Positions 27,546 to 60,743 of a DNA stretch of 64,000 bases are shown here, piece by piece. Made by a program: the position numbers and the translations under genes. The notes under the pieces are model-generated. The model was not told the DNA's origin. It saw only the letters and a list, made by a program, of their open reading frames with translations, and ran no database searches. Source of the DNA: Anaerolineae bacterium (lineage in GTDB: Bacteria > Chloroflexota > Anaerolineae > CG2-30-64-16); contig JAXGQB010000013.1 in the NCBI GenBank assembly GCA_040766655.1, positions 31 to 64,030 of the forward strand, in the 5' to 3' direction. Every line of letters begins with the position of its first letter. Positions within the stretch are counted from its first letter, which is position 1.

Positions 27546-29084
27546 TTATGGGGGCGGGCGGTAGTCGGCGGGGGTGTCGATGTCTTTGAGCACGTCGTCA
27601 GTGGGCCAGTCGACGTAGGCGACGCGGTGTTGGTGCTGGCGGATTATGGCGCGGGCGCCGGTGTCGCCGGTGAGTGCGGCGATGGCGGCGAAGGTGGTGC
27701 GGTCGAAGAGGACGGGGTTGCCCCGCTGGCCGGCATGCCTGGGCGCGACGACGGGCGCGAGGGTCTCGCGGTGGCGCTGGATGAGGGCGGTGAGGAGCTC
27801 GGGGGTGACCCCGGGCTGGTCGGCGAGGAGGAAAACGGCTGCTCCGGCGGGACCTGGGTCGGTCCCTACCGGCGGCGCCGGCGTGGGGGGCGCGCTGTGA
27901 CCTGGCCCTGCGGTGACGGCGGCGAGGCCGGCGCGCACGCTGCGACTCTGCCCCGCTGACCAGTCGGGCACGGCGACGATCTGCAGCCGGGGGTCGCCGG
28001 AGAGCACCCCCAGGGCGTCCCGAACTGCTGCCTCCTGCGCGCCGACGGTGACGGCGACCCGGTCGATGTCGGGGCAGGCCAGCGCCTGCCGGACGACGTG
28101 GGCGACCAGGGGCAGGCCTTCCCAGGGGAGCAGTTGCTTGAGAGAACCGTATCGCCGCGCCTCGCCGGCGGCCAGGACGACGGCATGGACGCGGCCCCAG
28201 ACCTCGTGGATGGGGTCGTCGGTCTGCGCCGCGCCGATGAGGACGGCAGACACGCGTGGGTGCTGGAGGAGGAGACGCGCGGTTTCGCGCGCGGCGGCCG
28301 GCGCCCGGGATTGAAGATTGAAGATGGGGCCAACTTCGTTGGCCCAAGATTGAAGATTTCGGTCCCCGGCATCTAGAATCCTGTCCCCAGTATCCGGTTC
28401 CCGTTCCGCAGTCCCCGATCCCCGTTCCCCGATCCCCGCTCCCACGTCGCTCTTGTTGATGAAGGGGACGAGGCGCGCGGCAGCCGTGCCTTTGGCGCCG
28501 CCGAGGGGGTGGGCAAGGACGGCGGCCACCATGGCGGGGGTAACGGGGTCGCCCAGGGATGCACCGGTCAGCGCGGCGACTCGCTCGGGGCGGTGGACGA
28601 ACTCGGCGGTCAGGGGGTGGCCGATGACGTCCAGCCCGACGATGGGCACGACGACGCTGGTGGCGGCGGGGATGACGGGCTCGTGAGCCGCCGGGGCCTT
28701 GAACGGCAGGCATCGGGCGCCGTCCGCCTCGATCACGATGACGTCGACCGAGGGGTGGGCGGCGATGCGGTCGATGAGTGCGCACCCGAGCCCCTGGACC
28801 TTCTCCTGCTCCACGATCGTGCCGCCCGCCAACAGCACGTGGCCGTGCTCGGCCAGGAGGCCGGGCAGCTGCGACAGGAGTGCACCCTCGCCCTGCAGCA
28901 CGAGCCGGGCCGGTGCGCGGGACATTTGCTCGACGAAGATCTTGGTGGTCATCGTGGTGACCACTTTGAGGCCATCCACCACGAGCTCATCGGCCAGCCG
29001 GAACATGAGCGTGGTCTTCCCGCCGCCGCCCACGAGGGCTACGACGTCGCCGGGGTGAATGCGGAGTGCGGTTCTGATCAACAT
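27546..29084 (-). CDS. Fusion protein: YqeC-type selenium-dependent hydroxylase accessory domain plus MocA/YgfJ-type molybdenum-cofactor cytidylyltransferase domain
   Basis: The N-terminal half has GDVVALVGGGGKTTLMFRLA...FINKSD (YqeC-like P-loop). The C-terminal half has VHAVVLAAGEARRYGSLKQLLPWEG...LLADQPGVTPE (MobA-like NTP transferase). Confidence 0.75.
   Translation of the reverse strand: MLIRTALRIHPGDVVALVGGGGKTTLMFRLADELVVDGLKVVTTMTTKIFVEQMSRAPARLVLQGEGALLSQLPGLLAEHGHVLLAGGTIVEQEKVQGLGCALIDRIAAHPSVDVIVIEADGARCLPFKAPAAHEPVIPAATSVVVPIVGLDVIGHPLTAEFVHRPERVAALTGASLGDPVTPAMVAAVLAHPLGGAKGTAAARLVPFINKSDVGAGIGERGSGTAEREPDTGDRILDAGDRNLQSWANEVGPIFNLQSRAPAAARETARLLLQHPRVSAVLIGAAQTDDPIHEVWGRVHAVVLAAGEARRYGSLKQLLPWEGLPLVAHVVRQALACPDIDRVAVTVGAQEAAVRDALGVLSGDPRLQIVAVPDWSAGQSRSVRAGLAAVTAGPGHSAPPTPAPPVGTDPGPAGAAVFLLADQPGVTPELLTALIQRHRETLAPVVAPRHAGQRGNPVLFDRTTFAAIAALTGDTGARAIIRQHQHRVAYVDWPTDDVLKDIDTPADYRPPP
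28308..28444. repeat. Composite element (GATTGAA array, GGGCCAAC-TTCG-TTGGCCC hairpin, CCCCGAT/CCAGTAT array) in frame inside the YqeC domain
   Basis: ggattgaagattgaagatggggccaacttcgttggcccaagattgaagatttcggtccccggcatctagaatcctgtccccagtatccggttcccgttccgcagtccccgatccccgttccccgatccccgctccc. Confidence 0.95.
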
Positions 29085-29103
29085 GGGCGGGACCTTCTTC
29101 CTC

Positions 29104-30756
29104 CTATGCCAGCCATCGCAGCCCCTTGGGATAGTGGCTCTTCAGGCGGCCGGCGACGCGCTTGGCCCAGCCGATGCCGAATTCATCGACGGTGACCAGG
29201 GTCCAGCCATCCTCGCCGGGATGGTCGACCGTCTCGCCGCGCAGGTAGCTTACCAGGCGCGGGTCATTGGGTGCAAAGTTGGCCGCGCGGCGGATGGGGG
29301 CGGCGATTGACGGTTGCAGGTTGAAGGTTGAAGGTTGCGCGTCGGGCTCGTGGGGCGCGGGCGCGGCGCTGCGTAGCGCGAGGGCGAGCGCGTGGCTCGG
29401 CTCGAAGCGGCCGCGCTTGGCCTCGCCCAACCACCAGCCCGGGTGCAGAAATCTGAGGCCTGTCAGGTCGGGCAGGCCGGGGGGGAGCGCGTACACGTAC
29501 GAGCCCACCAGGGCCAGGGAAGCGCTCTGCGGGACGATTGGAGATTGAAGATTGTCCTTCGGCTGCGCCGCGGCTCCGCCGCCGCTCCGTTCAGGATGCT
29601 CAAGGTGCGGCTGACCGAAGGTCAGCTGGGTGCGGAGGAAGGCGGTGAACTGGTCGCGGACGGCGCGCGGCGGCGATTGAAGGTTGGGCCAGCTTGGCTG
29701 GCCCAAGGTTGCAGTTTGAAAGTTGCGCGTCGGGCCGGCGGCGCGTGGGGCGGGCGCGGCGGCGTCTCTGGCGGAGCGGTCTCTTTGTAAGAGAGCGGCG
29801 AAGTGGCCTTCGCCCGGGCCGGTGTGGGGCCACAGGCGGACGCAGTTGACCAGGTCGGGACGCTGCAGGTCGTCGGGCAGCCAGTCGGGGCGGCCGGGGG
29901 TGAAGATTGAAGATTGGGATGCGGGCGGGGGAACGAGGCTGAAGTCGGGGTGCTGCTGCAGGAAGCGCGCGACGGTCCCCTCGTTCTCCTCGGGCGCGAA
30001 GGTGCAGGTGCTGTAGACGAGGCGGCCGCCGGGGCGCACGAGCCGGGCCGCGTGCTCCAGGATGCCGTCCTGCCGCGCGGCGCAGCCGGCAACGAGCGCG
30101 GGCGACCACGCGCGGCGCGCGGCCTCGCTGCGGCGGAACATGCCTTCCCCGGAGCAGGGTGCATCGACCAGCACGGCGTCGAAGACCCCGGGCCAGCGCG
30201 CGGCCAGGCGCTCGGGCGTCTCGGTGGTGATGGCTACGTTGGTGGCTCCCCAGCGCTCGAGGTTGCCGGCGAGCTCCCAGGCGCGCTTGTGCACGACTTC
30301 GTTGGCGATGAGCAGGCCTGCGCCCTGCATGCGGGCGGCGATGTGGGTGGCCTTGCCCCCGGGCGCGGCGGACAGGTCGAGGATGGTCTCGCCGGGCTGC
30401 GGCTGGAGCAGCTCGACGGGCGCGAGGGAGGCGGGGTCCTGCAGGTAGTAGAGGCCGGCCGCGTGGTAGGGGTGCTGGCCGGGGCGGGAATCGCCGGCCA
30501 GGAGGTATGCTTCGCCGGACCAGGGAATCGGCGCGAGGTCGAAGGGGAGCCGGGGCAGCAGGCCGGCGGGGGTGGCCTTGAGGGTGTTGACGCGCAGGGC
30601 GGTGGCGGGCGGCTGGTCGCAGGTGGCGAGGAACGCGGGATAGCCGGCGCGGAGGAGGGACTCCATGCGCGCGAGGTAGGCGGGGGGGAGGGGGATGGAA
30701 GATTGAAGATTGGGCCAACTTCGTTGGCCCAAGATGGAAGATCCGACTGCGCTCAC
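29104..30756 (-). CDS. RsmB/RsmF-family rRNA (cytosine-C5) methyltransferase with C-terminal PUA-like extension
   Basis: LRVNTLK, YYLQDPASLAPVELL, LDLSAAPGGKATH, DAVLVDAPCSGEGMFRR and VYSTCTF motifs. It is interrupted in frame by five repeat blocks. Confidence 0.8.
   Translation of the reverse strand: MSAVGSSILGQRSWPNLQSSIPLPPAYLARMESLLRAGYPAFLATCDQPPATALRVNTLKATPAGLLPRLPFDLAPIPWSGEAYLLAGDSRPGQHPYHAAGLYYLQDPASLAPVELLQPQPGETILDLSAAPGGKATHIAARMQGAGLLIANEVVHKRAWELAGNLERWGATNVAITTETPERLAARWPGVFDAVLVDAPCSGEGMFRRSEAARRAWSPALVAGCAARQDGILEHAARLVRPGGRLVYSTCTFAPEENEGTVARFLQQHPDFSLVPPPASQSSIFTPGRPDWLPDDLQRPDLVNCVRLWPHTGPGEGHFAALLQRDRSARDAAAPAPRAAGPTRNFQTATLGQPSWPNLQSPPRAVRDQFTAFLRTQLTFGQPHLEHPERSGGGAAAQPKDNLQSPIVPQSASLALVGSYVYALPPGLPDLTGLRFLHPGWWLGEAKRGRFEPSHALALALRSAAPAPHEPDAQPSTFNLQPSIAAPIRRAANFAPNDPRLVSYLRGETVDHPGEDGWTLVTVDEFGIGWAKRVAGRLKSHYPKGLRWLA
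29305..30742. repeat. Five separate repeat blocks inside the rsmF-like gene
   Basis: Blocks lie at 29305-29338, 29536-29600, 29675-29727, 29900-29920 and 30694-30742. Examples: gattgacggttgcaggttgaaggttgaaggttgcg; gattggagattgaagattgtccttcggctgcgcc...gctccgttcaggatgc; gattgaaggttgggccagcttggctggcccaaggttgcagtttgaaagttg; gaagattgaagattggg; gatggaagattgaagattgggccaacttcgttggcccaagatggaagat. Confidence 0.9.
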
Positions 30757-30855
30757 TGCGTTGTGCCAACCTTCGGTTGGCCCTCCGTTCGGGTTGCCTG
30801 TCGGGCCAACTTGCGGGCCGGCGGGCCGGATTGGCCCAGGGTTTGGGTTTCTTCA

Positions 30856-32904: not shown

Positions 32905-32993
32905 GGCGAGGAGACCTCGCCCCTACGCCAGGGCGAGGAGACCTCGCCCCTACACCTCGGCGAGGAGACCTCGCCCCTACATCTCGGCGAGGA
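32905..32993. repeat. Three and a half tandem 27-bp units, each a GGCGAGG-AGA-CCTCGCC hairpin followed by CCTAC
   Basis: Units start at 32905, 32932 and 32959. The last partial unit supplies the final codons and stop of the nitroreductase gene. Confidence 0.9.
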
Positions 32994-33558
32994 TCAGGTC
33001 GTCCAGCGCGCGCTTGGGCACGTGGTGGACGCGGTCCGCGTCGCGCCAGTACTTGATATCGCCGTCGGGGCCGACGGGATCGACGACGACGGTCTCCCTG
33101 GGCCGGCCCAGCGCGAGGACGGCGAGGATCTCGTAGCGATCCTCGATGGCGAGGACTTCGCGCAGCCGGCCGCGCTGGATGGAGCCGAGGATGCAGCCGC
33201 CGAGTCCGCGCTCGACCGCGCCGAGCAGGATGTTCTGCATGGCCAGGCCCTGGTCGATGCCGACGTAGGTCGGGACGGCGCCGGCCGTGTCGGACAGGAC
33301 GACGATGTAGGCTGCGGGCCGCTCGCCCTCCGCGGGGCCGGGCCACTCCTTGAGGTAACCGGCCCAGGCGAGGGTGGCAAAGATGGCGGCGTTGGTGTGA
33401 CGATCCGTGCAGAGGATGTAGCGCAGGGGCTGCAGGTTGCGTGCCGATGCGGCGAGGCGGGCGAGGGCGACGAGCTCGCGCAGGGTGGCGAGGTCGACCG
33501 GCTCCTCTTCGAAGAAACGGCGGTAGCTGCGGTTGTTCAGTGCCAGGCGGTCGAGCAT
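32977..33558 (-). CDS. Nitroreductase family protein
   Basis: NRRSYRRF, LARLAASARNLQP and a YIVVL...GIDQGLAMQNILLGA pattern typical of the NADH-oxidase/nitroreductase fold. Confidence 0.8.
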   Translation of the reverse strand: MLDRLALNNRSYRRFFEEEPVDLATLRELVALARLAASARNLQPLRYILCTDRHTNAAIFATLAWAGYLKEWPGPAEGERPAAYIVVLSDTAGAVPTYVGIDQGLAMQNILLGAVERGLGGCILGSIQRGRLREVLAIEDRYEILAVLALGRPRETVVVDPVGPDGDIKYWRDADRVHHVPKRALDDLILAEM

Positions 33559-33662: not shown

Positions 33663-36158
33663 TTACCCCTTGTCCCGCAGGGCGCGCCAGACGCGCTCGG
33701 CGGTGAACGGGAAATCGTCGATGCGGACGCCGGTGGCGTCGTGGATGGCGGCGGCCACGGCGGCTGCGACGGGCAGATAGGGCACTTCGCCCATGCCGCG
33801 CGCGCCCCAGGGGCCGTTGGGATCGGGCACTTCGACGATGATGGACTGGAGCTCGGCGGGCACGTCGAGGATGGTGGGGATGAGGTAGGTGCTGAGCCGG
33901 TCGCTCAACACCCGCCCGTCCTGCGTCTTCCAGTCCTCGAGGAGGGCGTAGCCGAGGGCCTGGACGACAGCGCCCTCGATCTGGCCGACGACCTGCTGCG
34001 GGTTGATGGCCCGACCCACATCGTCGGCGCAGATGAATTTCTCGACGCGCACCTGGCCGGTCTCCATGTCGACCGCGACCTGGACGGCCTGGGCCGTGTA
34101 GCCATAGGCGAAGTTGGGCTGGCCGTAGCCGGTGTCGTGGTCCATCGTGGTGGTCTTGGGCGCCAGGTAGACGGTCTCGCCGACGGCGGGGCGCTCCTCG
34201 CTCTCCCAGGCGGCCAGCGCCTTTTCGGCCGCGGCCTTGACTGCGTTGCCGCTCATGTAGGTCAGGCGGGAGGCGGACGCGCTGCCGGAGCTGCCCATGA
34301 GGGATGTGTCTGAGACGACGACGCGCACCTTCGCCAGCGGCAGGCCGAGCACCTCGGCCGCGGCCTGGGCGATGATGGTGTGGTTGCCCTGGCCGCAGTC
34401 GGCGCCGGCGTAGTAGACGACTGCTTCGGCGATCTCGGCGCTGCCGCGCAACTCGACGCGCGCGTAGCTGTTTTCCTGGTAGCCGAGGGAGAAGCCGACG
34501 TTCTTGAAGCCGGCGACGAAGCCGATGCCGCGACGGATGCTGGCGCCGGACGCGGCCGGCGCCGATTGAAGATTGTCCTTCGACTGCGCGGCCGCTGCGG
34601 CGGCGCTCCGCTCAGGATGCCTGGTATCCGGTATCCGGTCCTTCGACTGCGCGGCCGCTGCGGCGGCGCTCCGCTCAGGATGCCTGGTATCCGGTATCCG
34701 ATCCCCGGTCTCTGCCTCCCGGTCCCCGGTCTCTGCCTCCCGATCCCCGGTCCCCGATCCCCAGTCCCCGGTCCCCGATCCCCGGTCGCCGGGATCCAGC
34801 AGGGCGGGGCGATGCCAGTGGCCGGCGGGGTCCTGCTGCCAGCCGGCGGCGGCCGCGGTGGCGATGACTGCGTCGGTGAGCCCCACGCCGCCGGGGATGG
34901 GCGTCCCGACGGTGAGGAGCTTGTCGGCGGTCAGGATGTTCTTCAGCCGCAGCTCGACGGGGTCCAGGCCCAGGGCCTCGGCGAGGCGATCCATCTGCAG
35001 CTCGGCGGCAAAGTGGCCCTGGGGCCCGCCGAAGCCGCGGAAGGCGGCGCCGGGGACGTTGTTGGTGTAGACGGCGTAGGTGTCGACCGCGACGTGGGGG
35101 ATCTCGTACGGCCCGGTGCAGGTCTGCGTGGTGTTGCCGAGCACCTTGTTGCTGGTGTACATGTACGCGCCGCCGTCCGCGATGACCCGCACCTCGACCG
35201 CGGTCAGCATGCCGTCGCGCCTGGCGCCCCAGCGGGTGTAGATCTTCATGGCGTGGCGCTTGCCGTGGCCGATGAGTGATTCCTCGCGCGTCCAGATCGT
35301 CTTGATGGGGCGGCCGCGCAACTCCTCACGCTGGCCCAGGCGCCAGGCGGCCAGGGCCAGGGTGATCTGCACGGACATGTCCTCGCGGCCGCCGAACGCA
35401 CCGCCGATGGCGGGGTAGATGACGCGCACCTGGTCGAGCGGCAGGTCGAGGGCATGGGCGATCTGCGCCTGGTCCTCGTGCGCCCACTGGCCGGCGACCT
35501 CGACGGTCACGCGGCCGGCTTCGTCCAGGTAGGCGACGCCCGCTTCCGGCTGGAGGTAGGCGTGTTCCTGGACCGGCGTCTGATAGATGTTCTCGATGAT
35601 GACGTCTGCCTCGGCGAAGCCCTGTGCCAGGTCGCCCTTGCGGATGCGGTAGCTGTAGCAGACGTTGCTGTCCCGGTTGGGATGCAGCAGCAGGGCCCCG
35701 GGCTGCATCGCCTCTTCGGCATCGAGCACGAGGGGCAGGTCCTCCCACTCGACCCGGATGAGCCTGGTGGCCGCGCGGGCCTGGGCTTCCGTCTCGGCCA
35801 CGACGAGCGCCACCTGGTCGCCGACGAAGCGCACTACGTCGGCGCCTGGCGCGGCTGACCCGGGACCGCAGAGCACGGGCTGATCCTTGATCTGCAGGCC
35901 GTAGGCGTTGACGGGAACGTCCTGCGCGGTGAAGACGGCCACGACCCCGGGTGCGGCCGCCGCCGCGGTCGTGTCGATGCTGAGCACGCGCGCATGCACT
36001 TTACCCGCGAAGAGGGTGGCCATGTGGAGCATGCCGGGATGCGCGATGTCGCCGGGATAGAGGGTCTTGCCGGTGACTTTGCCCGGCGCGTCGATGCGGC
36101 GGGCGCTGGCTCCGACGCCATCAGGAGAGGGATTGGCTGCGGAAGATGGTGCGCTCAT
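33663..36158 (-). CDS. Xanthine dehydrogenase family molybdopterin-binding subunit (set 1)
   Basis: Start [10 protein letters not shown]...RIDAPGKVTGKTLYPGDI is at 36158, and ATGA overlaps the upstream stop. GGAFGGRED, AFRGFGGPQG and a GQIEGAVVQALGYALLE-type C-terminal motif are present. The track start 36746 is a spurious extension. Confidence 0.85.
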   Translation of the reverse strand: MSAPSSAANPSPDGVGASARRIDAPGKVTGKTLYPGDIAHPGMLHMATLFAGKVHARVLSIDTTAAAAAPGVVAVFTAQDVPVNAYGLQIKDQPVLCGPGSAAPGADVVRFVGDQVALVVAETEAQARAATRLIRVEWEDLPLVLDAEEAMQPGALLLHPNRDSNVCYSYRIRKGDLAQGFAEADVIIENIYQTPVQEHAYLQPEAGVAYLDEAGRVTVEVAGQWAHEDQAQIAHALDLPLDQVRVIYPAIGGAFGGREDMSVQITLALAAWRLGQREELRGRPIKTIWTREESLIGHGKRHAMKIYTRWGARRDGMLTAVEVRVIADGGAYMYTSNKVLGNTTQTCTGPYEIPHVAVDTYAVYTNNVPGAAFRGFGGPQGHFAAELQMDRLAEALGLDPVELRLKNILTADKLLTVGTPIPGGVGLTDAVIATAAAAGWQQDPAGHWHRPALLDPGDRGSGTGDWGSGTGDREAETGDREAETGDRIPDTRHPERSAAAAAAQSKDRIPDTRHPERSAAAAAAQSKDNLQSAPAASGASIRRGIGFVAGFKNVGFSLGYQENSYARVELRGSAEIAEAVVYYAGADCGQGNHTIIAQAAAEVLGLPLAKVRVVVSDTSLMGSSGSASASRLTYMSGNAVKAAAEKALAAWESEERPAVGETVYLAPKTTTMDHDTGYGQPNFAYGYTAQAVQVAVDMETGQVRVEKFICADDVGRAINPQQVVGQIEGAVVQALGYALLEDWKTQDGRVLSDRLSTYLIPTILDVPAELQSIIVEVPDPNGPWGARGMGEVPYLPVAAAVAAAIHDATGVRIDDFPFTAERVWRALRDKG
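34564..34790. repeat. Composite in-frame insertion in the Mo subunit: GATTGAA, then a 63-bp unit duplicated in tandem (34575-34637, 34638-34700), then a CCCCGGT/CCCCGAT/CCCCAGT array
   Basis: gtccttcgactgcgcggccgctgcggcggcgctccgctcaggatgcctggtatccggtatccg occurs twice. Translated as RIPDTRHPERSAAAAAAQSKD twice, preceded by GDRGSGTGDWGSGTGDREAETGDREAETGD. Confidence 0.95.
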
Positions 36159-37657
36159 GGGACCGCCTTCTCGACCGCTTCGAGTATCTTGTAGTAGCCG
36201 GTGCAGCGACACAGGTTGCCGGTCAGCGCTTCCTTGATCTGGCCCGGGGTCGGGTGTTCGACCTCTTCCAGCAGATTCGCGGCCGACATGAGGATGCCGG
36301 GGGTGCAATAGCCGCACTGAACCGCAGCGGCTTCGATGAACGACTGCTGCAGCGGGTGGAGGACGATGGTTTCGTCTTGCACCTGGGCCAGGCCTTCGAC
36401 CGTGACGACGTTGCAGCCCTCCGCGCGCTCGGCAGGCACCAGGCAGCTCATGACCGCGATGCCGTCGAGCCAGACGGTGCACGCACCGCACTCGCCCTCG
36501 TCGCACCCTTCCTTGGTGCCGGTGAGGCCGGCGTCCTCGCGCAGTGCGCGCAGGAGGGTCTTGCCGCGGGCGTGCGGCAGCTCGACGGGCTGGCCGTTGA
36601 GGGTGAAGCGGATCGGTGCATCCGGGCCGACGTGGCCTGGGCCGGCGGGGCCCAGGTCGACGGGGCCAAGGTCGGCCCCTACGGTGTCCCGGCCGCCCGT
36701 ATGCGGCGCCGCATGGCCGTTGCCATCGCGGCCGTGCTTGCCCCACAGCAGCACGGGCCGCTCAGGCCACCCGACCTGGCCCTGGCTGGCCTCGCGTTCG
36801 GTGCCGTCGCGCAACTGCCGCAGCGCGCGGGCGGTGTACACGCCGACCATCTCGCGGCGGTAGTCGGCTCCGGCCCGGATATCCGTGATCGGCCGGGAGG
36901 CCGCGGAAACGAGTTGCGCTGCGTGCTCGACCACATCCTCGCTGAGTTGCTTGCCGGCCAGGTAGGCCTCCGCCTCCGCCGCGCGCAGGATCGTCGGCGC
37001 GACTGCACCCATGGCAATGCGCGCCCGCGTGACCCGGCCGTCGCCGTCGAAATCGAGGACCGCGGCCACATTCAGCAGGCTGATCGCCTGTGCCTGGCGC
37101 AGGCCCAGCTTGAGAAACGTCCCGCGCTCGCTCGGCCTGAGGATCGGCACGTCGATACGGACGACCATCTCGTCGGGCTGGAGTGCGGTGCGGCGCACGC
37201 CGTGGAAGAACTCGCCGAACGCCAGGGTGCGCTCGCCGCGGGCCGCGCTGGCCAGCGTGATCCTGGCGTCCATGGCCCAAAGGGGCGTAATCGTATCGTT
37301 TGCCGGGCTGGCCGTCACCAGGTTGCCGGCCACGGTCCCGCGGTTGCGGATCTGTGGTGCGCCCACCAGCCAGCACGCACGCGCCAGGGGAAACGCATGT
37401 TGCACCGCCAGATCACTGCCGACGACTTGATTGTGGGTGACAGCAGCGCCGAGCGTCAGGACATCGCCGCTCAGAGTGATCTCGTCCAGCCCGGCCACGC
37501 GCGAAACGTCCATCAGGATTTTCTGCGAGCGCACGCCGCGCTCCAATTCCAGGATCAGATCGGTGCCGCCCGACATCACACGGCAGGACTCGCCGTGCTG
37601 GGCCAGCAACGCGAGTGCTTCTTCGATTGTCGATGGTGCATGATAGCTATGCCACAT
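36155..37657 (-). CDS. Fused FAD-binding (CoxM/XdhB-like) and [2Fe-2S] (CoxS/XdhC-like) subunit of xanthine dehydrogenase family enzyme (set 1)
   Basis: ATG 37657 ([24 protein letters not shown]) starts the FAD domain ([22 protein letters not shown]). After the linker comes [10 protein letters not shown]...[12 protein letters not shown]...CGYCTPG...LCRCTGY. Confidence 0.8.
36622..36685. repeat. GTAGGGGCCGAC-type repeat forming the linker between the FAD and FeS domains
   Basis: tccgggccgacgtggcctgggccggcggggcccaggtcgacggggccaaggtcggcccctacgg. Translated as [22 protein letters not shown]. Confidence 0.8.
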
Positions 37658-50847: not shown

Positions 50848-50867
50848 TCCGGGTTTACCTCCCTCCA

Positions 50868-53333: not shown

Positions 53334-53859
53334 GGGTGACCTCCTGGGAACGGGGACTGGGGATCGGGGATCGGGTATCGGTCGCCCCGGCGCCCTTGCG
53401 GCGATCTGCCGCCGTGACCTCGATAGCGTCGACGATCTGCTGATAGCCGGTGCAGCGGCACAGGTTGCCGGCGATGGCCTCGCGAATCTCGGCCCGGTCG
53501 GGCGTCAGGGTTTTCGCCAGCAGCGCCTCGCCTGCCAGGATCATGCCGGGGATGCAGTAGCCGCATTGCACCGCACCGTAATCGATGAAGTTCTGCTGCA
53601 GGTCGTTCGGTCCTCCGTCTGGTCCGCGGATCCCTTCGATGGTGACGACCTCGCGGCCGCCGGCCTGCGGCGCCAGAACCATGCACGAGTTCACCAGGCG
53701 GCCGTCCAGCAACACGCTGCACGCGCCGCACTCGCCGACGCCACATCCTTCCTTGGTCCCGGTGAGGTTCAGGTGATCGCGCAGGAGATGGAGCAGGCTG
53801 ATGTCAGCCGGAGCCTCGACACTGATCGGATGGCCGTTGAGCGTGAATTCGATTTTCAT
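53326..53859 (-). CDS. [2Fe-2S]-binding subunit (set 2)
   Basis: MKIEFTLNGHPI, GCGVGECGACSV, CGYCIPG and LCRCTGY. The C-terminal tail is encoded by a heptamer array and overlaps the Mo-subunit start. Confidence 0.9.
   Translation of the reverse strand: MKIEFTLNGHPISVEAPADISLLHLLRDHLNLTGTKEGCGVGECGACSVLLDGRLVNSCMVLAPQAGGREVVTIEGIRGPDGGPNDLQQNFIDYGAVQCGYCIPGMILAGEALLAKTLTPDRAEIREAIAGNLCRCTGYQQIVDAIEVTAADRRKGAGATDTRSPIPSPRSQEVTHG
53350..53381. repeat. GGGGACT/GGGGATC heptamers in the 3' end of the FeS gene
   Basis: acggggactggggatcggggatcgggtatcgg. Confidence 0.85.
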
Positions 53860-54746
53860 GCAAGCTGCTCCTCGTCTGCGAGGTTGAAGACGGACATGAG
53901 TGCGCGCGCCACCATGGCCTGCAGGGCAGGTTCCTTGAACTCGCTGGACCAGCGTTTCCCCGTGACCTCCAGCATCTCGGCGACCGCGGCCTGGCCGGCT
54001 TCCTGGCAGAGGGCGACGGAGGGCGCCTGGCCGAGCATGTGTGCCTCAGTCTGTGAGAAACGATGGATATGTGGCGTGGCAGAGCCGGGCGCGATCCGCA
54101 CCTCGGCGATGCGGCCCTGGCCGTCGAGGCGGCCCAGCGCAGCAACCGTCAGGCGGGAGATGGCCATCGCGTTGCGCCGGCCCAGCTTCAGAAACACGCC
54201 GCGGCTGCCCCGCGCTGGCACGAGGTAGCTCAGCGCGGTCAGCAGGCCGCCGGGCGGGAGCTGGGTGCGATTCGGCCGGGTGACGAAGTCGGCTACCGGC
54301 CACGCCAGCTCTTCGGTGGGGGTGACGACATGCGCAACTGCATCCAGGCAGACCAGCGCAGGCAGCGAATCGGCGCAGGCGGCCGCGTTGGCGACGTTCC
54401 CGCCCAGGGTGCCCATGTTGCGAATCTGTGTCGCGCCCACCGAATGGCAGGCGTCGCTCAGCAGGGGCGCGGTCTCGCGCACGAGCGCGGATGCGACGAT
54501 CTCGCTGAACGTTGCCCCTGCACCGATCTGCACATGATCTCCCGCGCCGTTGGTGACGCGGCGGATCTCGTGCAGCTCCGGCACGAGCGTAATATCCACC
54601 ACCCGATCGCAAAGGTTGCGTTGTTCGCGCGCCAGCAGCACCAGGTCGGTGCCGCCCGCCAGCACGCGGCTGCGCACGCCCGGAGCGTTCAGCAGCGTCA
54701 CGGCGTGCGGGATGCTCTCTGCCCGCACGTAGCTAAATCGTTCCAT
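53856..54746 (-). CDS. FAD-binding subunit (CoxM/XdhB-like, set 2)
   Basis: ATG 54746 gives MERFSYVRAESIPHAV, with AGGTDLVLLARE and IRNMGTLGGNVANA. A GAGGGA RBS is present. Confidence 0.85.
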   Translation of the reverse strand: MERFSYVRAESIPHAVTLLNAPGVRSRVLAGGTDLVLLAREQRNLCDRVVDITLVPELHEIRRVTNGAGDHVQIGAGATFSEIVASALVRETAPLLSDACHSVGATQIRNMGTLGGNVANAAACADSLPALVCLDAVAHVVTPTEELAWPVADFVTRPNRTQLPPGGLLTALSYLVPARGSRGVFLKLGRRNAMAISRLTVAALGRLDGQGRIAEVRIAPGSATPHIHRFSQTEAHMLGQAPSVALCQEAGQAAVAEMLEVTGKRWSSEFKEPALQAMVARALMSVFNLADEEQLA

Positions 54747-55608
54747 GCTCGGCTCCCTCTTGGTGTTTCTGATCCGACACCGCATTGCCCTCGCGCGAGG
54801 GTTCCCCGAAGGTTGCCCCGGAGCGGACGATGCGGCGGACGATCTTGAAGTTATAGCAGTCGGTCACGAAGTAGTTTCGGAAAAATGCCACGGGCACATG
54901 CTTGTCGCTGAAAACCGTCTCTGCCAGGTTCAGGATTGCCTTGCCCTCCGCCACGCCAAGTCGCGCCGCGAGCGCCCCGTCCGCCTCGACCGCATACAGC
55001 TCCGAGCGGGAGTATGAGACCGGCAGCTCCGTGTATTGGCATAGAAACTCGAGCAGCGATCCCTGACCGTCAGACAGCTGTTCCAGGGTCACCCATCGCC
55101 GGTCGATCAGCCCATCCAGGTACGCGACGGGCCGGTCGTCGAGGGCATTCGTGATCTCGACCCGCACGAGCTCGCTGCCCGGCGCCACCTGAAGCGCCTC
55201 GGCAACGGATTCATCGGCCCCCACCAGGCTCACCGAGCGATCCATCACGACCACCGATGCGCCGGCGAGCTCGGCGACCGAGCGAAAACTGGCCAGTCGC
55301 TCCAACCCGCTGGAGATGTGGTTGGTGTGTGGCGCCACAAAGGTGCCGATTCCGTGCTTGCGGACGATGAATCCGTCCTTCTCCAGGTAGCCCAGCGCCT
55401 CGCGCAGCGTCGAGCGCGAGACGCCCAGGTATGCGGCGAGCTCTCCCTCCGAAGGCAGCGACTGGCCGGCCGTGTACACGCCCGATTCGATCAGTTCATA
55501 CAATGCATCAACGGCCCAGATATACAGCGGTCGCGCAATCGGACGCGGACGGGGGCCAGTTGCCTGGCGCGGGTCAGATATCTGGCCTCTAGGCAGTCGT
55601 GGCAACAT
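54733..55608 (-). CDS. GntR family transcriptional regulator (HutC-like with UTRA-type effector domain)
   Basis: Winged HTH LPSEGELAAYLGVSRSTLREALGYLEKDGFIVRKHGIGTFV. It is embedded between the transporter and hydroxylase genes. Confidence 0.8.
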   Translation of the reverse strand: MLPRLPRGQISDPRQATGPRPRPIARPLYIWAVDALYELIESGVYTAGQSLPSEGELAAYLGVSRSTLREALGYLEKDGFIVRKHGIGTFVAPHTNHISSGLERLASFRSVAELAGASVVVMDRSVSLVGADESVAEALQVAPGSELVRVEITNALDDRPVAYLDGLIDRRWVTLEQLSDGQGSLLEFLCQYTELPVSYSRSELYAVEADGALAARLGVAEGKAILNLAETVFSDKHVPVAFFRNYFVTDCYNFKIVRRIVRSGATFGEPSREGNAVSDQKHQEGAEHGTI

Positions 55609-57175
55609 GAGCCGGCTGCTCCCCAGTTCCCAGGGCCTCGTCCATGGGCACGCCGGCCATCATCAGGCCAAGCTGCTCGATGGTGGCCTGGTCCCGATTC
55701 ACCACGCCGATGATCTGGCCCTCGTAGATGACCGCAATGCGATCGGACAGCGCGCGGATCTCATCCAGGTCCTCGGAGATCAGCAGCACCGCTTTGCCCT
55801 CCGCGCGTTGTTGCAGCAGGCGCTGGTGGATGTACTCCGTCGCACCGATGTCGACGCCGCGCGATGGCTGCGCCGCAATCAGGACCTTGGGCCCCCGCGA
55901 GAGCTCACGGGCCATGATCGCCTTCTGGATATTGCCGCCGGAAAGGTTCTTGATGGGCGTGTCGAGTCCGGGCGTCTTCACTGCAAATTCCTTGATCAGC
56001 GATTTGGCGTGCGCGGCCATCTTGCCGAAATCCATGAAGACGCCACGCGTGAACTGTGGTGAGGCGTGGTCCAGCAGGAAGAGGTTCTCCTGCACCGAGA
56101 ATTCCTTGATCGCGCCGTCACGCATGCGCTCTTCGGGAATGAAGGCCTGGCCGGCCTTCAGCCGATCATGCACCGAGGCGTGTGTCAGGTCCACGCCGTC
56201 GACGATGATGTTGCCCGCGGTCACCTTGCGCATGCCGCCCAGGCAGCCGGCCAGTTCGCGCTGCCCGTTGCCCGATACGCCGGCCATGCCGAGGATCTCT
56301 CCCTCCCGGATCTCCAGGTCGACGCCGCGCAGCGCTTCCACGCCGCGGTCGCCCATGGCACGCAGCCCTTTGAGCTGGAGGAGCGGCTTGCCGGGCTTCT
56401 GTGGCGGAGGCGCGATGCGCTTGATCTCACGCCCGACCATCATGGTCGCCAGCTGGTCGCGGGTGACGTCCTTCGTCGCCACCTCGCCGCTGAACTTGCC
56501 GTCCCGCAGCACGGTGATCCGGTCGCTGATCGCCAGCACCTCGTAGAGCTTATGCGAGATAAAGACCAGCCCGTGTCCTTCCTTGACCATGCGCTTGAAT
56601 GTCACGAACAGGTCGTTGACTTCCTGCGGGGTCAGAACGGCAGTGGGCTCGTCCAGAATAATCATGGCTGCGCCGCGGTAGAGTGCCTTCAAAATCTCTA
56701 CGCGCTGCTGTTCGCCTACGGAGAGCTGCCAGATGTAGGCGTCAGGGTGTACTTTGAGGCCATACTCCTCCGAAAGCTCGCGCACACGCTTCTCGACCCG
56801 ATCGAGATCCAGAAGTGGTTCGCGTGAGGAGTGGAGCCCCAGTGCGACGTTCTCCGTCACGGTCAGCGTGGGGACCAGCATGAAGTGCTGGTGGATCATG
56901 CCGATGCCGGCGGCGATCGCATCGGCTGGGGAATTGAAGACGACCGGCTTGCCGTCGATGAGGATCTCGCCTTCGTCAGGCTTATAAAGGCCAAAGAGCT
57001 GGCGCATGAGCGTGCTCTTTCCTGCGCCATTTTCGCCCAACAGGGCATGCACTTCGCCGGCATTGACGTCAAAACAGACCTTGTCGTTTGCCAGCACGCC
57101 AGGGAAGCGCTTGACAATATCGCACATCTCGATGCGCTGGATGCTTTTGAAACTCTGACCCGCTGGATTGTTCAT
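55589..57175 (-). CDS. ABC transporter ATP-binding protein, duplicated ATPase (nucleoside/sugar CUT2 type)
   Basis: GENGAGKSTLM with LSVGEQQRVEI, then GVSGNGQRELA with LSGGNIQKAIMAREL. Confidence 0.9.
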   Translation of the reverse strand: MNNPAGQSFKSIQRIEMCDIVKRFPGVLANDKVCFDVNAGEVHALLGENGAGKSTLMRQLFGLYKPDEGEILIDGKPVVFNSPADAIAAGIGMIHQHFMLVPTLTVTENVALGLHSSREPLLDLDRVEKRVRELSEEYGLKVHPDAYIWQLSVGEQQRVEILKALYRGAAMIILDEPTAVLTPQEVNDLFVTFKRMVKEGHGLVFISHKLYEVLAISDRITVLRDGKFSGEVATKDVTRDQLATMMVGREIKRIAPPPQKPGKPLLQLKGLRAMGDRGVEALRGVDLEIREGEILGMAGVSGNGQRELAGCLGGMRKVTAGNIIVDGVDLTHASVHDRLKAGQAFIPEERMRDGAIKEFSVQENLFLLDHASPQFTRGVFMDFGKMAAHAKSLIKEFAVKTPGLDTPIKNLSGGNIQKAIMARELSRGPKVLIAAQPSRGVDIGATEYIHQRLLQQRAEGKAVLLISEDLDEIRALSDRIAVIYEGQIIGVVNRDQATIEQLGLMMAGVPMDEALGTGEQPAHVATTA

Positions 57176-57213
57176 CTTTCACTCCTGGCCTGGCGGCGCC
57201 CCGTCGGACGCGT

Positions 57214-57333
57214 TGGTTGCAGGTTCTAAGGTTGAAAGTTGCAGGTTGTGTGCTCGGAGGCGCTCCTCGGTTGAAGGTTGAACGTCTGCTACAGAACTTT
57301 CAACCTTCAACCTGCAACCTGCAACCTTCAACC
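57214..57333. repeat. Inverted GGTTGCA/GGTTGAA arrays forming a long intercistronic hairpin
   Basis: ggttgcaggttctaaggttgaaagttgcaggttg...ggttgaaggttgaacg...ctttcaaccttcaacctgcaacctgcaaccttcaacc. Confidence 0.95.
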
Positions 57334-57352
57334 GGTGACTGGTCGTTCGGGT

Positions 57353-58354
57353 TTAGGGTTCGACCTTGATGGCCCCGCTCTTGATGCCCTCGATCGCGGC
57401 CTCGGCGGCCTGCTTGACATCGTCGGGCAGCTGATATGCCGAATTGTAGGCGATCTTCAGCCCGCCGTTCTTCAGCTCCAGAACGAAAGCTTCTCCGCCC
57501 AACTTGCCGTCCTTGCGGTTGGCAATCATCTGCTTCAGGATCCCGGTCCAGTCATACTGCTGGCTGGCGACCACGTTCTCCGGGGCGAGCGTAGCCTGGT
57601 CCTGCTGCGTGCCGAACCACATCACGCTGCCCGCTTCCTTCGCCGCGCCGACGGAGCCAACGACCGACTGAGAGGAGCCGGTCAACACATCCGCGCCGGC
57701 TGCGATGTGGGTCTTGGCGGCCTCGGTCATCAGCGCGACGTCCGAGAACGAGCCGGTCCAGGTCTTCGCAAGCTTGAGGCCGGGATCGGTGGCAGTCACG
57801 CCCTGCACGAAGCCGTCGACGTACGTCTTGGCATCGCCCGCTTCCACGGGGCCGGTCACGCCGATTACCTTGGTCTTGGAGAGCATCGCGGCCATGACGC
57901 CGTTGACGTACCCGCCCTGCTCCGCCGCGGCCGTGTACGCGTAGACGTTAGGCATGCCGAACGTATTCACCTCGGTGCCCCAGGCGAAGGTCGTCTTGGG
58001 GAAGTCCGGGGCGATCTCCTGGACCGACGAGCCGTACTGCGAGCCGTGGCCGAGCACGATGTCGAAGCCCTGGCTGGCATAATCGCGGATGGCAGCTGCC
58101 GCGTCCGCCACCTTGAACATGTTCTCCGAGTACTTCAGCTCGACTGCGGCCTCGCCGCCCATCTCGGCCTGGATGCTCTTCAGTGCATCCCACATCGATT
58201 GGCTGAAGGCCAGGTCGGTCGTGGCGCTGGGCATCACCACTGCGATTCGTAGCGGCTTGTCGCCGGTCTGTCCACCGGTGGTCGCTGCGCCACCGCCGCA
58301 TGCGGTGAGCAGTGCGAGCACCATCACGAGAGCGAACAACGTGCGAAACTTCAT
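57353..58354 (-). CDS. BMP-family (PnrA/Med-like) ABC substrate-binding lipoprotein, likely purine/nucleoside-binding
   Basis: ATG 58354 gives MKFRTLFALVMVLALLTAC, a lipobox. A AVVMPSATTDLAFSQS type BMP fold pattern follows. The track start 58474 reads through a heptamer array. Confidence 0.8.
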   Translation of the reverse strand: MKFRTLFALVMVLALLTACGGGAATTGGQTGDKPLRIAVVMPSATTDLAFSQSMWDALKSIQAEMGGEAAVELKYSENMFKVADAAAAIRDYASQGFDIVLGHGSQYGSSVQEIAPDFPKTTFAWGTEVNTFGMPNVYAYTAAAEQGGYVNGVMAAMLSKTKVIGVTGPVEAGDAKTYVDGFVQGVTATDPGLKLAKTWTGSFSDVALMTEAAKTHIAAGADVLTGSSQSVVGSVGAAKEAGSVMWFGTQQDQATLAPENVVASQQYDWTGILKQMIANRKDGKLGGEAFVLELKNGGLKIAYNSAYQLPDDVKQAAEAAIEGIKSGAIKVEP

Positions 58355-58370
58355 TCTGTGTTCTCCTTTT

Positions 58371-58419
58371 CTGGATACTGGTTGCTGGATACTAGATACT
58401 GGATACTGATCACTGGATG
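58371..58419. repeat. GGATACT heptamer array (intercistronic)
   Basis: ctggatactggttgctggatactagatactggatactgatcactggatg. Confidence 0.9.
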
Positions 58420-58427
58420 TTGTTGTC

Positions 58428-59360
58428 TTAGTGTGCTCCTCGTTCGAAGGGTTTGTTGAGTGCGGCCGGGCCACGCACCCGGCTCACCGTCAGCGCCAGG
58501 GCGACGATGGTGAGCAGGTAGGGCAGCATCACGGCCACGTCGGACGGAATCGGAACGTTGAGGACCTGCATCCAAAGCTGGAACGCGTTGACCGTGCTGA
58601 AGAGCAGCGCGCCCAACATGATGCCCAGCGGCCGCCAGCCGCCGAAGTAGACCAACGCCACGGCGATGAAGCCCTGGCCCGCGGTCAGGTTCTCCTGGAA
58701 CAGGTTGACCAGCGCCAGCGACAGCGATGCGCCGGCCAGCCCGGCCAGCAGCGCGCCGGTGACGGTGCCCACGTAACGCACACGATCGACGTTCACGCCC
58801 AGCGAGTCCGCGGCCGCGGGCGTCTGTCCGACGGCCTTGAGGCGCAACCCCCACGTGGTCTTGTCCAGGATGAACCACGCGATCGGCACCAGCAGGAACG
58901 CGCCGTATACGGGCAGGCTCTGGTTGAAGGCGATATCGCCGATGTAGGGGATATCACCGAGCAGCGGGAGCTTGATAGGCTGGAAGCCCGTGATGGTCTT
59001 CACCGTGCCGATGGTCGTCTTGAACAGAAGGCTGGAGAGCCCGAGGCCGAACATGTAGAGACCGATGCCGCTGATGCCCTGTTCGGCCTTCAGGGTGACG
59101 CTGATGAAGGCCATGAGGAGGCCCATCAACACGCCGATCAGCGCGCCGGCCAGCAGGCCCAGCCACAGATTGCCCGTGTTCAAGGCGATGAAGAAGGCGC
59201 CGTAGGCGCTCATCAGCATGATGCCGTCCACGCCCAGGTTGACGACGCCCGACAGCTCCGCGATCGCTTCGCCGATGCCCGCATACAGATACGGCGTCGC
59301 CAGGCGCACGGCCGAGGTGAGAATGCCGACGATGATTGCGGCAGTCGTGAGCTCATTCAT
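58428..59360 (-). CDS. ABC transporter permease (BMP-system, second permease)
   Basis: Polytopic membrane protein of the branched-chain/ribose-type permease fold. Its start overlaps the upstream gene's stop. Confidence 0.85.
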   Translation of the reverse strand: MNELTTAAIIVGILTSAVRLATPYLYAGIGEAIAELSGVVNLGVDGIMLMSAYGAFFIALNTGNLWLGLLAGALIGVLMGLLMAFISVTLKAEQGISGIGLYMFGLGLSSLLFKTTIGTVKTITGFQPIKLPLLGDIPYIGDIAFNQSLPVYGAFLLVPIAWFILDKTTWGLRLKAVGQTPAAADSLGVNVDRVRYVGTVTGALLAGLAGASLSLALVNLFQENLTAGQGFIAVALVYFGGWRPLGIMLGALLFSTVNAFQLWMQVLNVPIPSDVAVMLPYLLTIVALALTVSRVRGPAALNKPFERGAH

Positions 59361-60487
59361 GAGTGAGCCTCCAGCTTCTTAGCCATTTCGATTGTCCGGC
59401 GGGTGGCGAGGCGGCGTGACCAGACCTGCGAGCCGATGACCAACAGCACGATCAGGCCCAGCAGGGAGTCGATCAGCGAGGCCGGCACCTGGACGGCCCG
59501 CTGCATCATATCGGCGCCGACGAGCAGGCTGCCGAAGAGCCACGACGCGGGGATCAGGCCAAGCGGGTGCAGTCCGCCGAAGAGTGCGGCCACGATGCCC
59601 GTGAAGCCATAGCCGCTCGTGACGCCCTCGAGGAGCCGGTGCTGCACGCCGATCACCTCGACCACGCCGGCCAGGCCAGCGAACCCGCCCGCGAGCGTCA
59701 GCGACAAGGCCTGGTAGAACGGCACGGGGATGCCGGCGTACTTGGAGGCTTCCGGGCTGAGGCCCACTGCCCGGATCCGGTAGCCGATCGTCGTGCGCCA
59801 CAGGAAGATGTAGACCAATACTGCGAGCACCACCGCAATGATGGCGCCGCTATGCAACTGGGTCTGTGGGATCCGGCCAAGCCAGACCTGTGTCGGCAGG
59901 CGATCGGACTGGTGGATGAAGGTTCCGGCGGCCACGCCCGCGGGATCGATCAGCGGGCCGCGAAGGAGCAGGTTCATGAGCTGGAGGCCGATGGCGTTCA
60001 TCATCACCGTGCTGAGGATCTCGTTCACGTTCAGACGGGCCTTGAGGATGCCCGGGATGAACCCCCAGAACGCGCCGGCAAGGAAGCCCATGATCATGGT
60101 CGCGGGGATCAGGAGCAAGCCGGGCCAGGTGCGGAACTGCAGCGAGAACCACGTGGCCATCAGGGCGCCGGCGATGATCTGGCCCTCGCCGCCGATGTTG
60201 AGCACGCTGGCGCGGAATGCGATGCAGATGCCCAGGCCCACGAGGAGCAGCGGCGTGGCCTTGACCAGCGACTGCGTGAAGCCATAGAAGCTGCCAAAGA
60301 CGCCTTTGACCATGGTGGCATACGCGGTCACGGGGTTCGCGCGCAGCAGCAGCAGCATGACTGCCCCTATCACCAGCGCGACCAGGATCGCCAGGATGGG
60401 CGAGGCGGCTCTGAGCAGGAGTCCCTGCCAGTCGAACGCCGGCTTGCGAGCCGGGCGCAGGGTGTCAGTGGCCGGATCTGATGGCAT
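59357..60487 (-). CDS. ABC transporter permease (BMP-system, first permease)
   Basis: Polytopic membrane protein. A GGAGGT RBS lies upstream of ATG 60487. Confidence 0.85.
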   Translation of the reverse strand: MPSDPATDTLRPARKPAFDWQGLLLRAASPILAILVALVIGAVMLLLLRANPVTAYATMVKGVFGSFYGFTQSLVKATPLLLVGLGICIAFRASVLNIGGEGQIIAGALMATWFSLQFRTWPGLLLIPATMIMGFLAGAFWGFIPGILKARLNVNEILSTVMMNAIGLQLMNLLLRGPLIDPAGVAAGTFIHQSDRLPTQVWLGRIPQTQLHSGAIIAVVLAVLVYIFLWRTTIGYRIRAVGLSPEASKYAGIPVPFYQALSLTLAGGFAGLAGVVEVIGVQHRLLEGVTSGYGFTGIVAALFGGLHPLGLIPASWLFGSLLVGADMMQRAVQVPASLIDSLLGLIVLLVIGSQVWSRRLATRRTIEMAKKLEAHS

Positions 60488-60714
60488 GGCCTACCTCCGA
60501 GTGTCGATGCGTTGCACGGGCGAATACGAAGCGATCAGTCAGACGGGGTCTGCGGGCGTGTTGAACCAGGTCCAGTGGCGGGAAGGACGCGCGGCCACTG
60601 CAACGAATGTGAGGAAAGTTCGGATGGCTCGTCGGCATGGACGATGGCTCCAAACAGAGACTATTGCAGAAAGGGCGATGGCAGACATCCTCAGACGTCT
60701 GAGGTCTGAGGACC
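60488..60714 (-). promoter_or_regulatory. Long (about 220 nt) structured 5' leader of the transporter/hydroxylase operon; candidate cis-regulatory RNA of unknown class
   Basis: The minus-strand transcript contains CCUCAGACGUCUGAGG. A long-range pairing CGUUGCA...UGCAACG encloses the hairpins CAGUGGC-N14-GCCACUG and CAGAC-CCC-GUCUG. Confidence 0.35.
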
Positions 60715-60743
60715 AGATTACCACAAATTTCACAAGTTGTCAA
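60715..60743 (-). promoter_or_regulatory. Promoter TTGACA-N17-TAATCT
   Basis: On the reverse strand, ttgaca (60738-60743) and taatct (60715-60720) are separated by a 17-nt spacer. Confidence 0.5.

Follow-up and report, generated by a model that had tools for sequence, protein, structure and literature searches.

We analysed a 64,000-nucleotide stretch of contig JAXGQB010000013.1 from an Anaerolineae bacterium (hereafter the window) and found in it a gene array that probably specifies the reductive anaerobic urate pathway in a Chloroflexota version. The array runs from about 60.5 down to 33.7 kb and is complemented by a gene for a YqeC-MocA fusion protein at 27.5-29.1 kb; judging from gene families and gene order, we put the probability of this reading at roughly 70%. 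The window is GC-rich (62-74%), and all real genes between 27.5 and 64.0 kb lie on its minus strand, with a third-position GC of 0.77-0.92. A previous sequence-only reading had described a 33-kb supercluster on one strand of a Chloroflexota-like genome. The host assignment is borne out, as the nearest named relatives of the window proteins are Anaerolineae metagenome-assembled genomes (MAGs) at 83-86% identity, and a 73-kb metagenome contig (ENA ERZ25038444) is 99.2% identical to the window and carries the same genes. The genes listed in that reading are real and lie where they were placed, but the interval also holds genes for an RsmF-like rRNA methyltransferase, GGT, a nitroreductase, an α/β-hydrolase and two pyridoxal-phosphate (PLP) enzymes, and instead of a seamless 33-kb block we find a conserved unit of about 27 kb (33663-60487) plus YqeC-MocA. 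Throughout, family calls are NCBIfam bit scores given against the curated cut-off of the respective model, with Pfam as a cross-check. The absence of HyuA, YgeX and YqeB was checked by tblastn across the whole window with E. coli and Chloroflexota-type queries. Locus searches were anchored on SsnA and on PLP486, one of the two PLP enzymes, and comprised 80 loci each, scored by tblastn against window and E. coli proteins. Loci other than the window are designated by L numbers.

The gene set is that of the reductive urate (2,8-dioxopurine) pathway, so that the locus is, judging from its sequence, a member of a kind of cluster that is already known. This pathway was worked out in 2025, only in gut Proteobacteria and Firmicutes, and the function of each E. 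coli or Clostridium homologue was established biochemically (PMC12507026; bioRxiv 10.1101/2025.04.24.650524). Urate is reduced to 2,8-dioxopurine by XdhD or XdhAC, the ring is then reduced by YgfK and opened by SsnA, and the second ring is opened by HyuA to give 2,3-diureidopropionate (PMC12507026; bioRxiv 10.1101/2025.04.24.650524). Phosphorolysis of one ureido group by YgeW provides carbamoyl phosphate, from which carbamate kinase forms ATP, while the other ureido group is hydrolysed by YgeY and YgeX converts 2,3-diaminopropionate to pyruvate; the two studies disagree on the ureido group that YgeW attacks (PMC12507026; bioRxiv 10.1101/2025.04.24.650524). The recent work on anaerobic purine and urate breakdown to which the sequence-only reading referred thus exists. 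A literature search combining Anaerolineae, carbamate kinase and xanthine dehydrogenase returned no papers.

SsnA and YgfK are encoded side by side. SsnA (37848..39185), the predicted amidohydrolase for ring opening of reduced 2,8-dioxopurine, scores 543.7 against 444 with NF005540 and 512.8 against 455.5 with TIGR03314 and is 35% identical to E. coli SsnA. The adjoining YgfK (39203..42583), a putative Fe-S flavoenzyme reducing 2,8-dioxopurine, scores 889.6 against 835.3 with TIGR03315 and is 38% identical to its E. coli counterpart over 1084 amino acids. Both proteins exceed equivalog cut-offs and are therefore not a generic amidohydrolase and a GltD protein, which supports the initial calls. 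The order YgfK-SsnA-FAD(FeS)-Mo matches E. coli ygfK-ssnA-ygfM-xdhD, in keeping with the ygeV-ygfT gene vocabulary recognised earlier.

Two xanthine dehydrogenase (XDH)-family enzymes with FAD, 2Fe-2S and Mo parts are present as proposed, with the FAD and 2Fe-2S parts fused in set A and separate in set B. Set A consists of the Mo subunit MoA (33663..36155), a candidate urate/2,8-dioxopurine oxidoreductase, and the fused subunit (36155..37627), which has NCBIfam matches of XdhB/XdhC/xdhA type at residues 5-282 and 350-500 and, on the near-identical contig, the Pfam domains FAD_binding_5, CO_deh_flav_C, Fer2 and Fer2_2. Set B comprises the Mo subunit MoB (50958..53333), a candidate (hypo)xanthine dehydrogenase, a 2Fe-2S subunit (53326..53859; best match XdhC_XDHase, 185.8 against 217) and a FAD subunit (53856..54785; best match XdhB_XDHase, 194 against 310). 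MoA and MoB are about 34% identical to each other. At the positions equivalent to E802, R880 and E1261 of the XDH active site in bovine numbering, the alignment gives E/R/E for MoA and D/R/E for MoB. Both keep R where XdhD has Q, and both are XdhA-like, with a separate FeS domain. A MoA-type gene also follows SsnA in L172-L176. Since set A sits where xdhD-ygfM sits in E. coli, we propose that it is probably the urate reducer and set B probably the hypoxanthine/xanthine oxidiser. MoA occupies the xdhD position, yet it resembles classical XDH at three active-site positions; the urate-reducer function may still be covered by an XDH-family enzyme at this place. In Terriglobia, a MoA-like enzyme occurs alongside an XdhD-like one.

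MoA measures 830 amino acids, compared with 785-786 in its closest homologues, owing to an in-frame insertion at 34575-34810 (minus strand) that consists of an exact 63-nt duplication and heptamer arrays. The insertion falls at the boundary of the L/M split of nicotinate dehydrogenase, and the MoA homologue of L176 was called as two open reading frames that are split at about the same point.

The predicted release of the ureido groups involves four neighbouring genes. Carbamate kinase (46414..47382), which would form ATP from carbamoyl phosphate and ADP, is of the YqeA type (TIGR00746, 366.4 against 358.3; 48% identical to E. coli YqeA), and YgeY (49630..50868), a putative M20 ureido-group hydrolase, scores 443.6 against 321.5 with TIGR03526; both thus pass curated cut-offs, as the earlier assignments would imply. 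Between them lie two carbamoyltransferases, for which these assignments hold only in part. The protein described as YgeW-like (47394..48383) is indeed 35% identical to E. coli YgeW and keeps the YgeW-specific motifs SQIAHG-T, N-QC..HP-Q, WAY--SY-KP-SVPQ and KSW-P, but it fails the YgeW models (190 against 453; 254 against 306 with the OTC model) and lacks three insertions and the C-terminal tail of YgeW. We regard it as a shortened, knotted-type sister of YgeW and call it mini-YgeW. The protein described as PyrB-like (48523..49503) does pass the ATCase model TIGR00670, if marginally (247 against 237), but its acceptor site is altered: compared with E. coli PyrB, it keeps STRTR, R105, HPTQ and R167, while K84 and R229 are replaced and five amino acids are inserted. 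K84 and R229 are the ligands of the aspartate β-carboxylate in established ATCase structures (E. coli numbering), and with both lost carbamoyl-aspartate is an unlikely substrate. The loss of the two residues and the insertion are conserved in 10 homologues, whereas a true PyrB (L015) keeps both residues. Upstream of the YgeW-like gene, 26 loci with enough sequence contained the PyrB-like gene only (17), YgeY only (4), both (2) or neither (3). This mostly either/or occurrence suggests that the PyrB-like enzyme and YgeY perform the same step, one by phosphorolysis and the other by hydrolysis; the window holds both.

HyuA and YgeX, which the sequence-only reading had failed to recognise along with YqeB, are absent across all 64 kb, even with Chloroflexota-type queries. 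For HyuA, neither the E. coli query nor 30 Chloroflexota-type queries gave a match in the window. A candidate replacement is an α/β-hydrolase of the monoacylglycerol-lipase family (42568..43449; Pfam Hydrolase_4, 242 bits), whose gene overlaps the start of YgfK by 16 nt. Of the 58 PLP486 loci whose downstream flank is long enough, 21 have a HyuA-like gene within 4 kb on the downstream side of PLP486, the region in which the window has the α/β-hydrolase.

YgeX gave no convincing match in the window either, the only weak one being to a threonine-synthase-derived enzyme, here called ThrC-like (25% identity; 53.6 bits against 276 with NF006058). This ThrC-like protein (45052..46329) is the partner of PLP486 (43527..44987), a 486-residue, CysK-like PLP enzyme of fold type II with CysK/CBS matches below threshold only, and we infer that the YgeX step is carried out by ThrC-like, PLP486 or both. 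Members of the PLP486 family, now annotated as cysteine synthase, are 68-100% conserved and occur in at least 600 species genomes, and a ThrC-like gene accompanies PLP486 in 55 of the 80 PLP486 loci. The three solved threonine synthases that we aligned all have the Arg of the motif NP(Y/H)R(L/I)EGQKT. In ThrC-like proteins this Arg is replaced by Met in the window and by M/T/V/L in 59 of 60 module copies, and STGNT has become STGNA. The Arg of the first motif and the Thr of STGNT are phosphate-site residues of the Thermus thermophilus enzyme; a literature search for the function of threonine synthase Arg160 found nothing. The possibility that ThrC-like is a housekeeping threonine synthase was rejected on the grounds of this motif loss and of the linkage across phyla. 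PLP486 was modelled with AlphaFold2 from an alignment of 12 sequences; with a mean pLDDT of 55.5, the model was too poor for a fold search.

PLP486 of the window was also compared across lineages (L012, L036, L051, L056, L063, L071, L072, L075 and L084). It is 68-76% identical among Chloroflexota, Terriglobia, Desulfobacterales, SAR324, Marinilabiliaceae, Halanaerobiales and Acidimicrobiia, and this identity, unusually high for lineages so distant, suggests a lateral spread of the module.

Regulation and uptake are represented by a GntR/HutC-type regulator (54733..55608; GntR and HutC family matches) and a BMP/PnrA-type ABC importer (55589..60487), in agreement with the first description. A GntR+UTRA gene occupies the same place in L007, L172, L173 and L175. 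The importer consists of a double ATPase (55589-57175), a binding lipoprotein (57353-58354) and two permeases (58428-59360 and 59357-60487), with Pfam matches to Bmp (PF02608), BPD_transp_2 (twice) and ABC_tran (twice).

At the other end, YqeC-MocA (27546..29084) is a putative maturation protein for the Mo cofactor and a selenium cofactor. Its YqeC part is clear (TIGR03172, 172.6 against 73), and Pfam finds YqeC and NTP_transf_3; the C-terminal MocA/YgfJ half has TIGR03310 as its best match and stays below the cut-off (142 against 186). The linker contains sequence derived from a 7-nt repeat. A gene for selenophosphate synthetase, SelD (7706..8755, minus strand; TIGR00476, 379 against 125 with Cys in place of the stop), lies 19 kb from the cluster and has an in-frame TGA (UGA, selenocysteine) at 8702-8704, the position of the catalytic Cys, with the translation SSCAG*ASKL. 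On account of this codon the host presumably decodes selenocysteine. YqeC and SelD together suggest a dependence on selenium; according to published work, no sequence signature separates selenium from sulfur dependence. The combination of YqeC (TIGR03172), a YgfJ-like domain and SelD near XDH-family genes resembles the trait of selenium-dependent Mo hydroxylases (Haft & Self 2008, PMC2276186), from which the window differs in that the defining marker YqeB is absent and the Mo subunits lie far below TIGR03311.

Taken together, the genes would allow the following flow. Purines or nucleosides would be imported by the BMP-type ABC importer under GntR/HutC control, set B would probably oxidise hypoxanthine and xanthine to urate, and set A would probably reduce urate to 2,8-dioxopurine, the ring of which would be reduced by YgfK and opened by SsnA. 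The remaining hydantoin or dihydropyrimidine ring would then be opened, probably by the α/β-hydrolase, to yield 2,3-diureidopropionate. One ureido group might be phosphorolysed by mini-YgeW and the other removed by the ATCase-derived enzyme (phosphorolysis) or by YgeY (hydrolysis), and carbamate kinase could form one ATP from every carbamoyl phosphate, at most two per urate. Pyruvate and ammonia could be formed from 2,3-diaminopropionate, or from a ureido precursor, by ThrC-like and/or PLP486, which would thereby replace YgeX, and the pyruvate could be oxidised by a neighbouring pyruvate:ferredoxin oxidoreductase (PFOR). Maturation of the Mo cofactor, possibly with selenium, would fall to YqeC-MocA and SelD. 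All these activities we infer from family membership and gene linkage, which are what we observed.

Several findings weigh against the urate reading, and they concern the hydroxylases and selenium, the replaced steps, and the outline of the cluster. Neither MoA nor MoB passes an equivalog model (best match PucD, 542 and 514 against 784), and both score far below the models for Se-dependent XDH (TIGR03311) and for XdhD-type proteins. The fusion of FeS and Mo parts that characterises XdhD and the 11-residue XdhD insertion with E606 are absent from both. The PDB matches of MoA and MoB, which include 4-HBCR, nicotinate dehydrogenase, aldehyde oxidoreductase, CO dehydrogenase and XDH, score alike and do not favour purines, so that we make no substrate call from them. 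YqeB (TIGR03309) gave no tblastn match in the 64-kb window with either an E. coli or a Chloroflexota query, and SelD, itself a selenoprotein, is needed for selenocysteine anyway.

As to the replaced steps, the α/β-hydrolase and the two PLP enzymes might be hitch-hikers, namely a lipase, a threonine synthase and a cysteine-synthase-like enzyme, in a canonical pathway whose real HyuA and YgeX are encoded elsewhere. The hydrolase is closest by sequence to monoacylglycerol lipases (PDB 6eic, 169 bits), ThrC-like still lies above the TIGR00260 cut-off (196 against 167), PLP486 also occurs in unrelated neighbourhoods such as L068, and, with only 64 kb of the genome visible, a hyuA gene could lie beyond the window. 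We nevertheless consider this explanation unlikely, owing to the linkage of the three genes. For all six homologues of the α/β-hydrolase that were looked up (65-72% identical), SsnA or YgfK-SsnA follows directly downstream. Counting L007, L011 and the window as well, the hydrolase gene has this position in nine of nine loci, including L174, L176 and L177, which are without the lower module, and none of the nine has a HyuA-like gene. The 80 SsnA-anchored metagenome loci contained no α/β-hydrolase gene, and the mutual exclusion of hydrolase and HyuA was judged from the hydrolase homologues instead. The PLP pair in turn tracks uricolytic genes well beyond Chloroflexota. In Terriglobia, Desulfobacterales and SAR324 it stands within clusters that have an authentic YgeW (65-68% identical to that of E. 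coli), YgeY, SsnA, YgfK and XDH, and it also accompanies uricolytic genes in Polyangiaceae, Marinilabiliaceae, Halanaerobiales and Acidimicrobiia. A YgeX-type gene was found in none of the 160 PLP486- and SsnA-anchored loci, and ThrC-like has lost a residue that is invariant in the solved threonine synthases. These observations argue for replacement enzymes within the urate pathway, and the ring-opening role that gene linkage assigns to the α/β-hydrolase is therefore put forward as probable.

Concerning the outline of the cluster, the RsmF-like rRNA methyltransferase and GGT genes lie between YqeC-MocA and the remaining genes, and a terminator-like hairpin with a T-run follows directly after the GGT stop. 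Neither gene has a connection with purines or is conserved alongside the cluster in other loci, and both look like passengers. Together with promoter and terminator scans that were otherwise at chance level, they would also fit a chance juxtaposition of unrelated operons without a shared pathway. Such a coincidence seems highly improbable to us, because an order of 12-13 genes recurs in L172, L173 and L175 and in part in L007 and L011, and because the genes overlap or lie less than 150 nt apart over most of 33.7-55.6 kb. L172, L173 and L175 repeat the layout GntR, YgeY, two carbamoyltransferases, carbamate kinase, ThrC-like, PLP486, α/β-hydrolase, YgfK, SsnA, FAD/FeS and Mo subunits. Between the window and these loci the pathway proteins are 56-93% identical, and GntR merely 31-35%.

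A further alternative is that the array serves the degradation of another N-heterocycle (orotate or dihydroorotate, pyrimidines, environmental hydantoin) and that the N-carbamoyl amino acid from which ATP is gained has nothing to do with urate. This would suit the marginal pass of the PyrB-like protein with the ATCase model, the adjacent DHOD-like gene and the architecture of YgfK, which is like that of dihydropyrimidine dehydrogenase, and many loci have the two carbamoyltransferases, carbamate kinase, PLP enzyme and HyuA without SsnA, YgfK or XDH within ±10 kb. SsnA and YgfK, however, pass equivalog models that were built for proteins of urate clusters, the PyrB-like enzyme without K84 and R229 is unlikely to handle carbamoyl-aspartate, two XDH-family enzymes are needed for purines and not for pyrimidines, and in L029 the lower module is contiguous with SsnA. 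We thus hold the degradation of a different heterocycle to be improbable. Its more specific form, an orotate fermentation by the PyrB-like and DHOD-like proteins, was rejected because the aspartate ligands are missing.

With the urate pathway as the preferred reading, the locus can be set beside known clusters. It shares with those of E. coli, C. sporogenes and C. difficile the orthologues of SsnA, YgfK, YgeY and carbamate kinase, the YgfK-SsnA-FAD-Mo order, XDH-family Mo enzymes, a YqeC/MocA accessory protein and a YgeW-related carbamoyltransferase adjoining carbamate kinase. It differs from them in the lack of HyuA, YgeX, YqeB and UacT, in XdhA-like three-part Mo enzymes in place of the FeS-Mo fused XdhD/XdhAC, and in a shorter sister of YgeW plus a second, ATCase-derived carbamoyltransferase. 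Two other PLP enzymes and the α/β-hydrolase fill the vacant positions, the regulator is GntR instead of σ54-YgeV, and an ABC importer takes the place of the permease. The variant purine route that the sequence-only reading suspected thus finds support in missing enzymes with others in their places. As in phosphorylation of the arginine deiminase type, a phosphorolytic carbamoyltransferase would feed carbamoyl phosphate to carbamate kinase for ATP formation, but the acceptor sites in the window are neither those of OTC (no SMG loop) nor those of ATCase (no K84/R229), and the enzymes presumably act on ureido derivatives of 2,3-diaminopropionate.

Within Chloroflexota, SsnA loci have been described by Li et al. 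as lacking YgfK and having an F420-dependent luciferase-like enzyme instead (PMC12507026). L029 (Anaerolineaceae bin52, CP070708) is such an F420-type locus, and it has a PyrB-like carbamoyltransferase, a mini-YgeW, a BMP-type ABC transporter, ThrC-like and PLP486 in common with the window, its lower module being contiguous with SsnA. It carries a HyuA-like amidohydrolase, Fno, cofC/D/E and a luciferase-like gene but neither YgfK nor the α/β-hydrolase, whereas the window has YgfK and the α/β-hydrolase and neither F420 genes nor HyuA. YgfK is present in the window, in L172-L175 and, as a YgfK-like gene, in L011, an Anaerolineales MAG. With L172, L173 and L175 repeating the window layout and L011 carrying its own copy, the published generalisation that Chloroflexota lack YgfK has exceptions in this clade.

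Some features of the related loci may be added here. In L029, SsnA is followed (15841-20658) by Fno, cofE, a nitroreductase-family gene, cofD, cofC and the luciferase-like gene, so that a full F420 supply set is attached to the urate module. Toxin-antitoxin pairs (MqsA-like, MazE/PIN, HicAB) stand among the α/β-hydrolase, SsnA and YgfK genes of L174 (11161-13532) and L177 (8862-11268). Small genes of the 23S_rRNA_IVP and DinB families lie within the lower module of L172 (4347-4757 and 5808-6473) and L173 (4697-5161 and 6271-6942) and are absent from the window.

Our data suggest that free-living Chloroflexota and members of several other phyla carry the urate pathway in a form in which three or four steps have non-orthologous replacements. 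The points of interest are the candidate replacements for HyuA, for YgeW/YgeY and for YgeX. It is a tentative proposal, and one that is less likely than not, that a widespread environmental clade, mainly of Anaerolineae, combines a lipase-family substitute for HyuA, phosphorolysis by two carbamoyltransferases (with two ATP per urate and not one) and a new PLP pair in place of YgeX. If true, this would assign functions to large families whose present annotations (cysteine synthase, threonine synthase, aspartate/ornithine carbamoyltransferase and lysophospholipase) are wrong, reveal a route with twice the ATP yield from the ureido groups, and correct the view that Chloroflexota lack YgfK. It would also bear on which ureido group enzymes of the YgeW type attack, given that the two carbamoyltransferase types resemble enzymes that act on side chains (AOTC/YgeW-like) and on α-amino groups (ATCase-like).

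Immediately upstream of the module lie a gene for a DHOD-like protein (60869-61918, minus strand; NF005741, 469 against 303) and one for the C-terminal part of PFOR (61934 to the window end at 64000, minus strand; TIGR02176, 955 against 911). PFOR followed by a PRK07565-type DHOD-like gene has the same position in L007 (1-2740) and L011. The pair is possibly linked to the cluster and could couple the pyruvate output to the reduction of ferredoxin. A nitroreductase-family protein (32977..33558; Pfam PF00881) is encoded next to MoA; a 72%-identical nitroreductase gene follows the MoA homologue in L173, and the protein is possibly part of the cluster.

A tRNA scan of the 64-kb window found none, including no tRNA-Sec, and the counts from promoter and terminator scans were at chance level apart from the hairpin and T-run behind GGT. 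The window contains about 25 arrays of 7-nt tandem repeats, which are intergenic or lie in frame inside genes (PriA-like, the YqeC-MocA linker, RsmF and MoA). The repeat units are CCCCAGT, GGGGATT, TTGAAGA and variants; CCCCAGT equals the STRR1 heptamer of heterocystous cyanobacteria. Arrays were located at 19559-19720, 22909-22977, 23408-23491, 24439-24528, 28400-28443, 34698-34792, 37673-37738, 48455-48524, 50870-50905, 53346-53381, 57295-57333 and 58371-58418, among others. A 37-nt palindromic element of the type AAGTGCCCGGCACTT-CGAA-GTGCCGGGCACTT occupies four intergenic gaps of the cluster (30851-30887, 43466-43502, 45001-45037 and 46346-46382) and may represent either a REP-like element or an RNA hairpin. 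Finally, 27-nt tandem repeats with a short inverted repeat are found in two intergenic regions, the gap between the nitroreductase and GGT genes (32903-32993, 3.4 copies) and that between YgeY and the PyrB-like gene (49535-49590, 2.1 copies).

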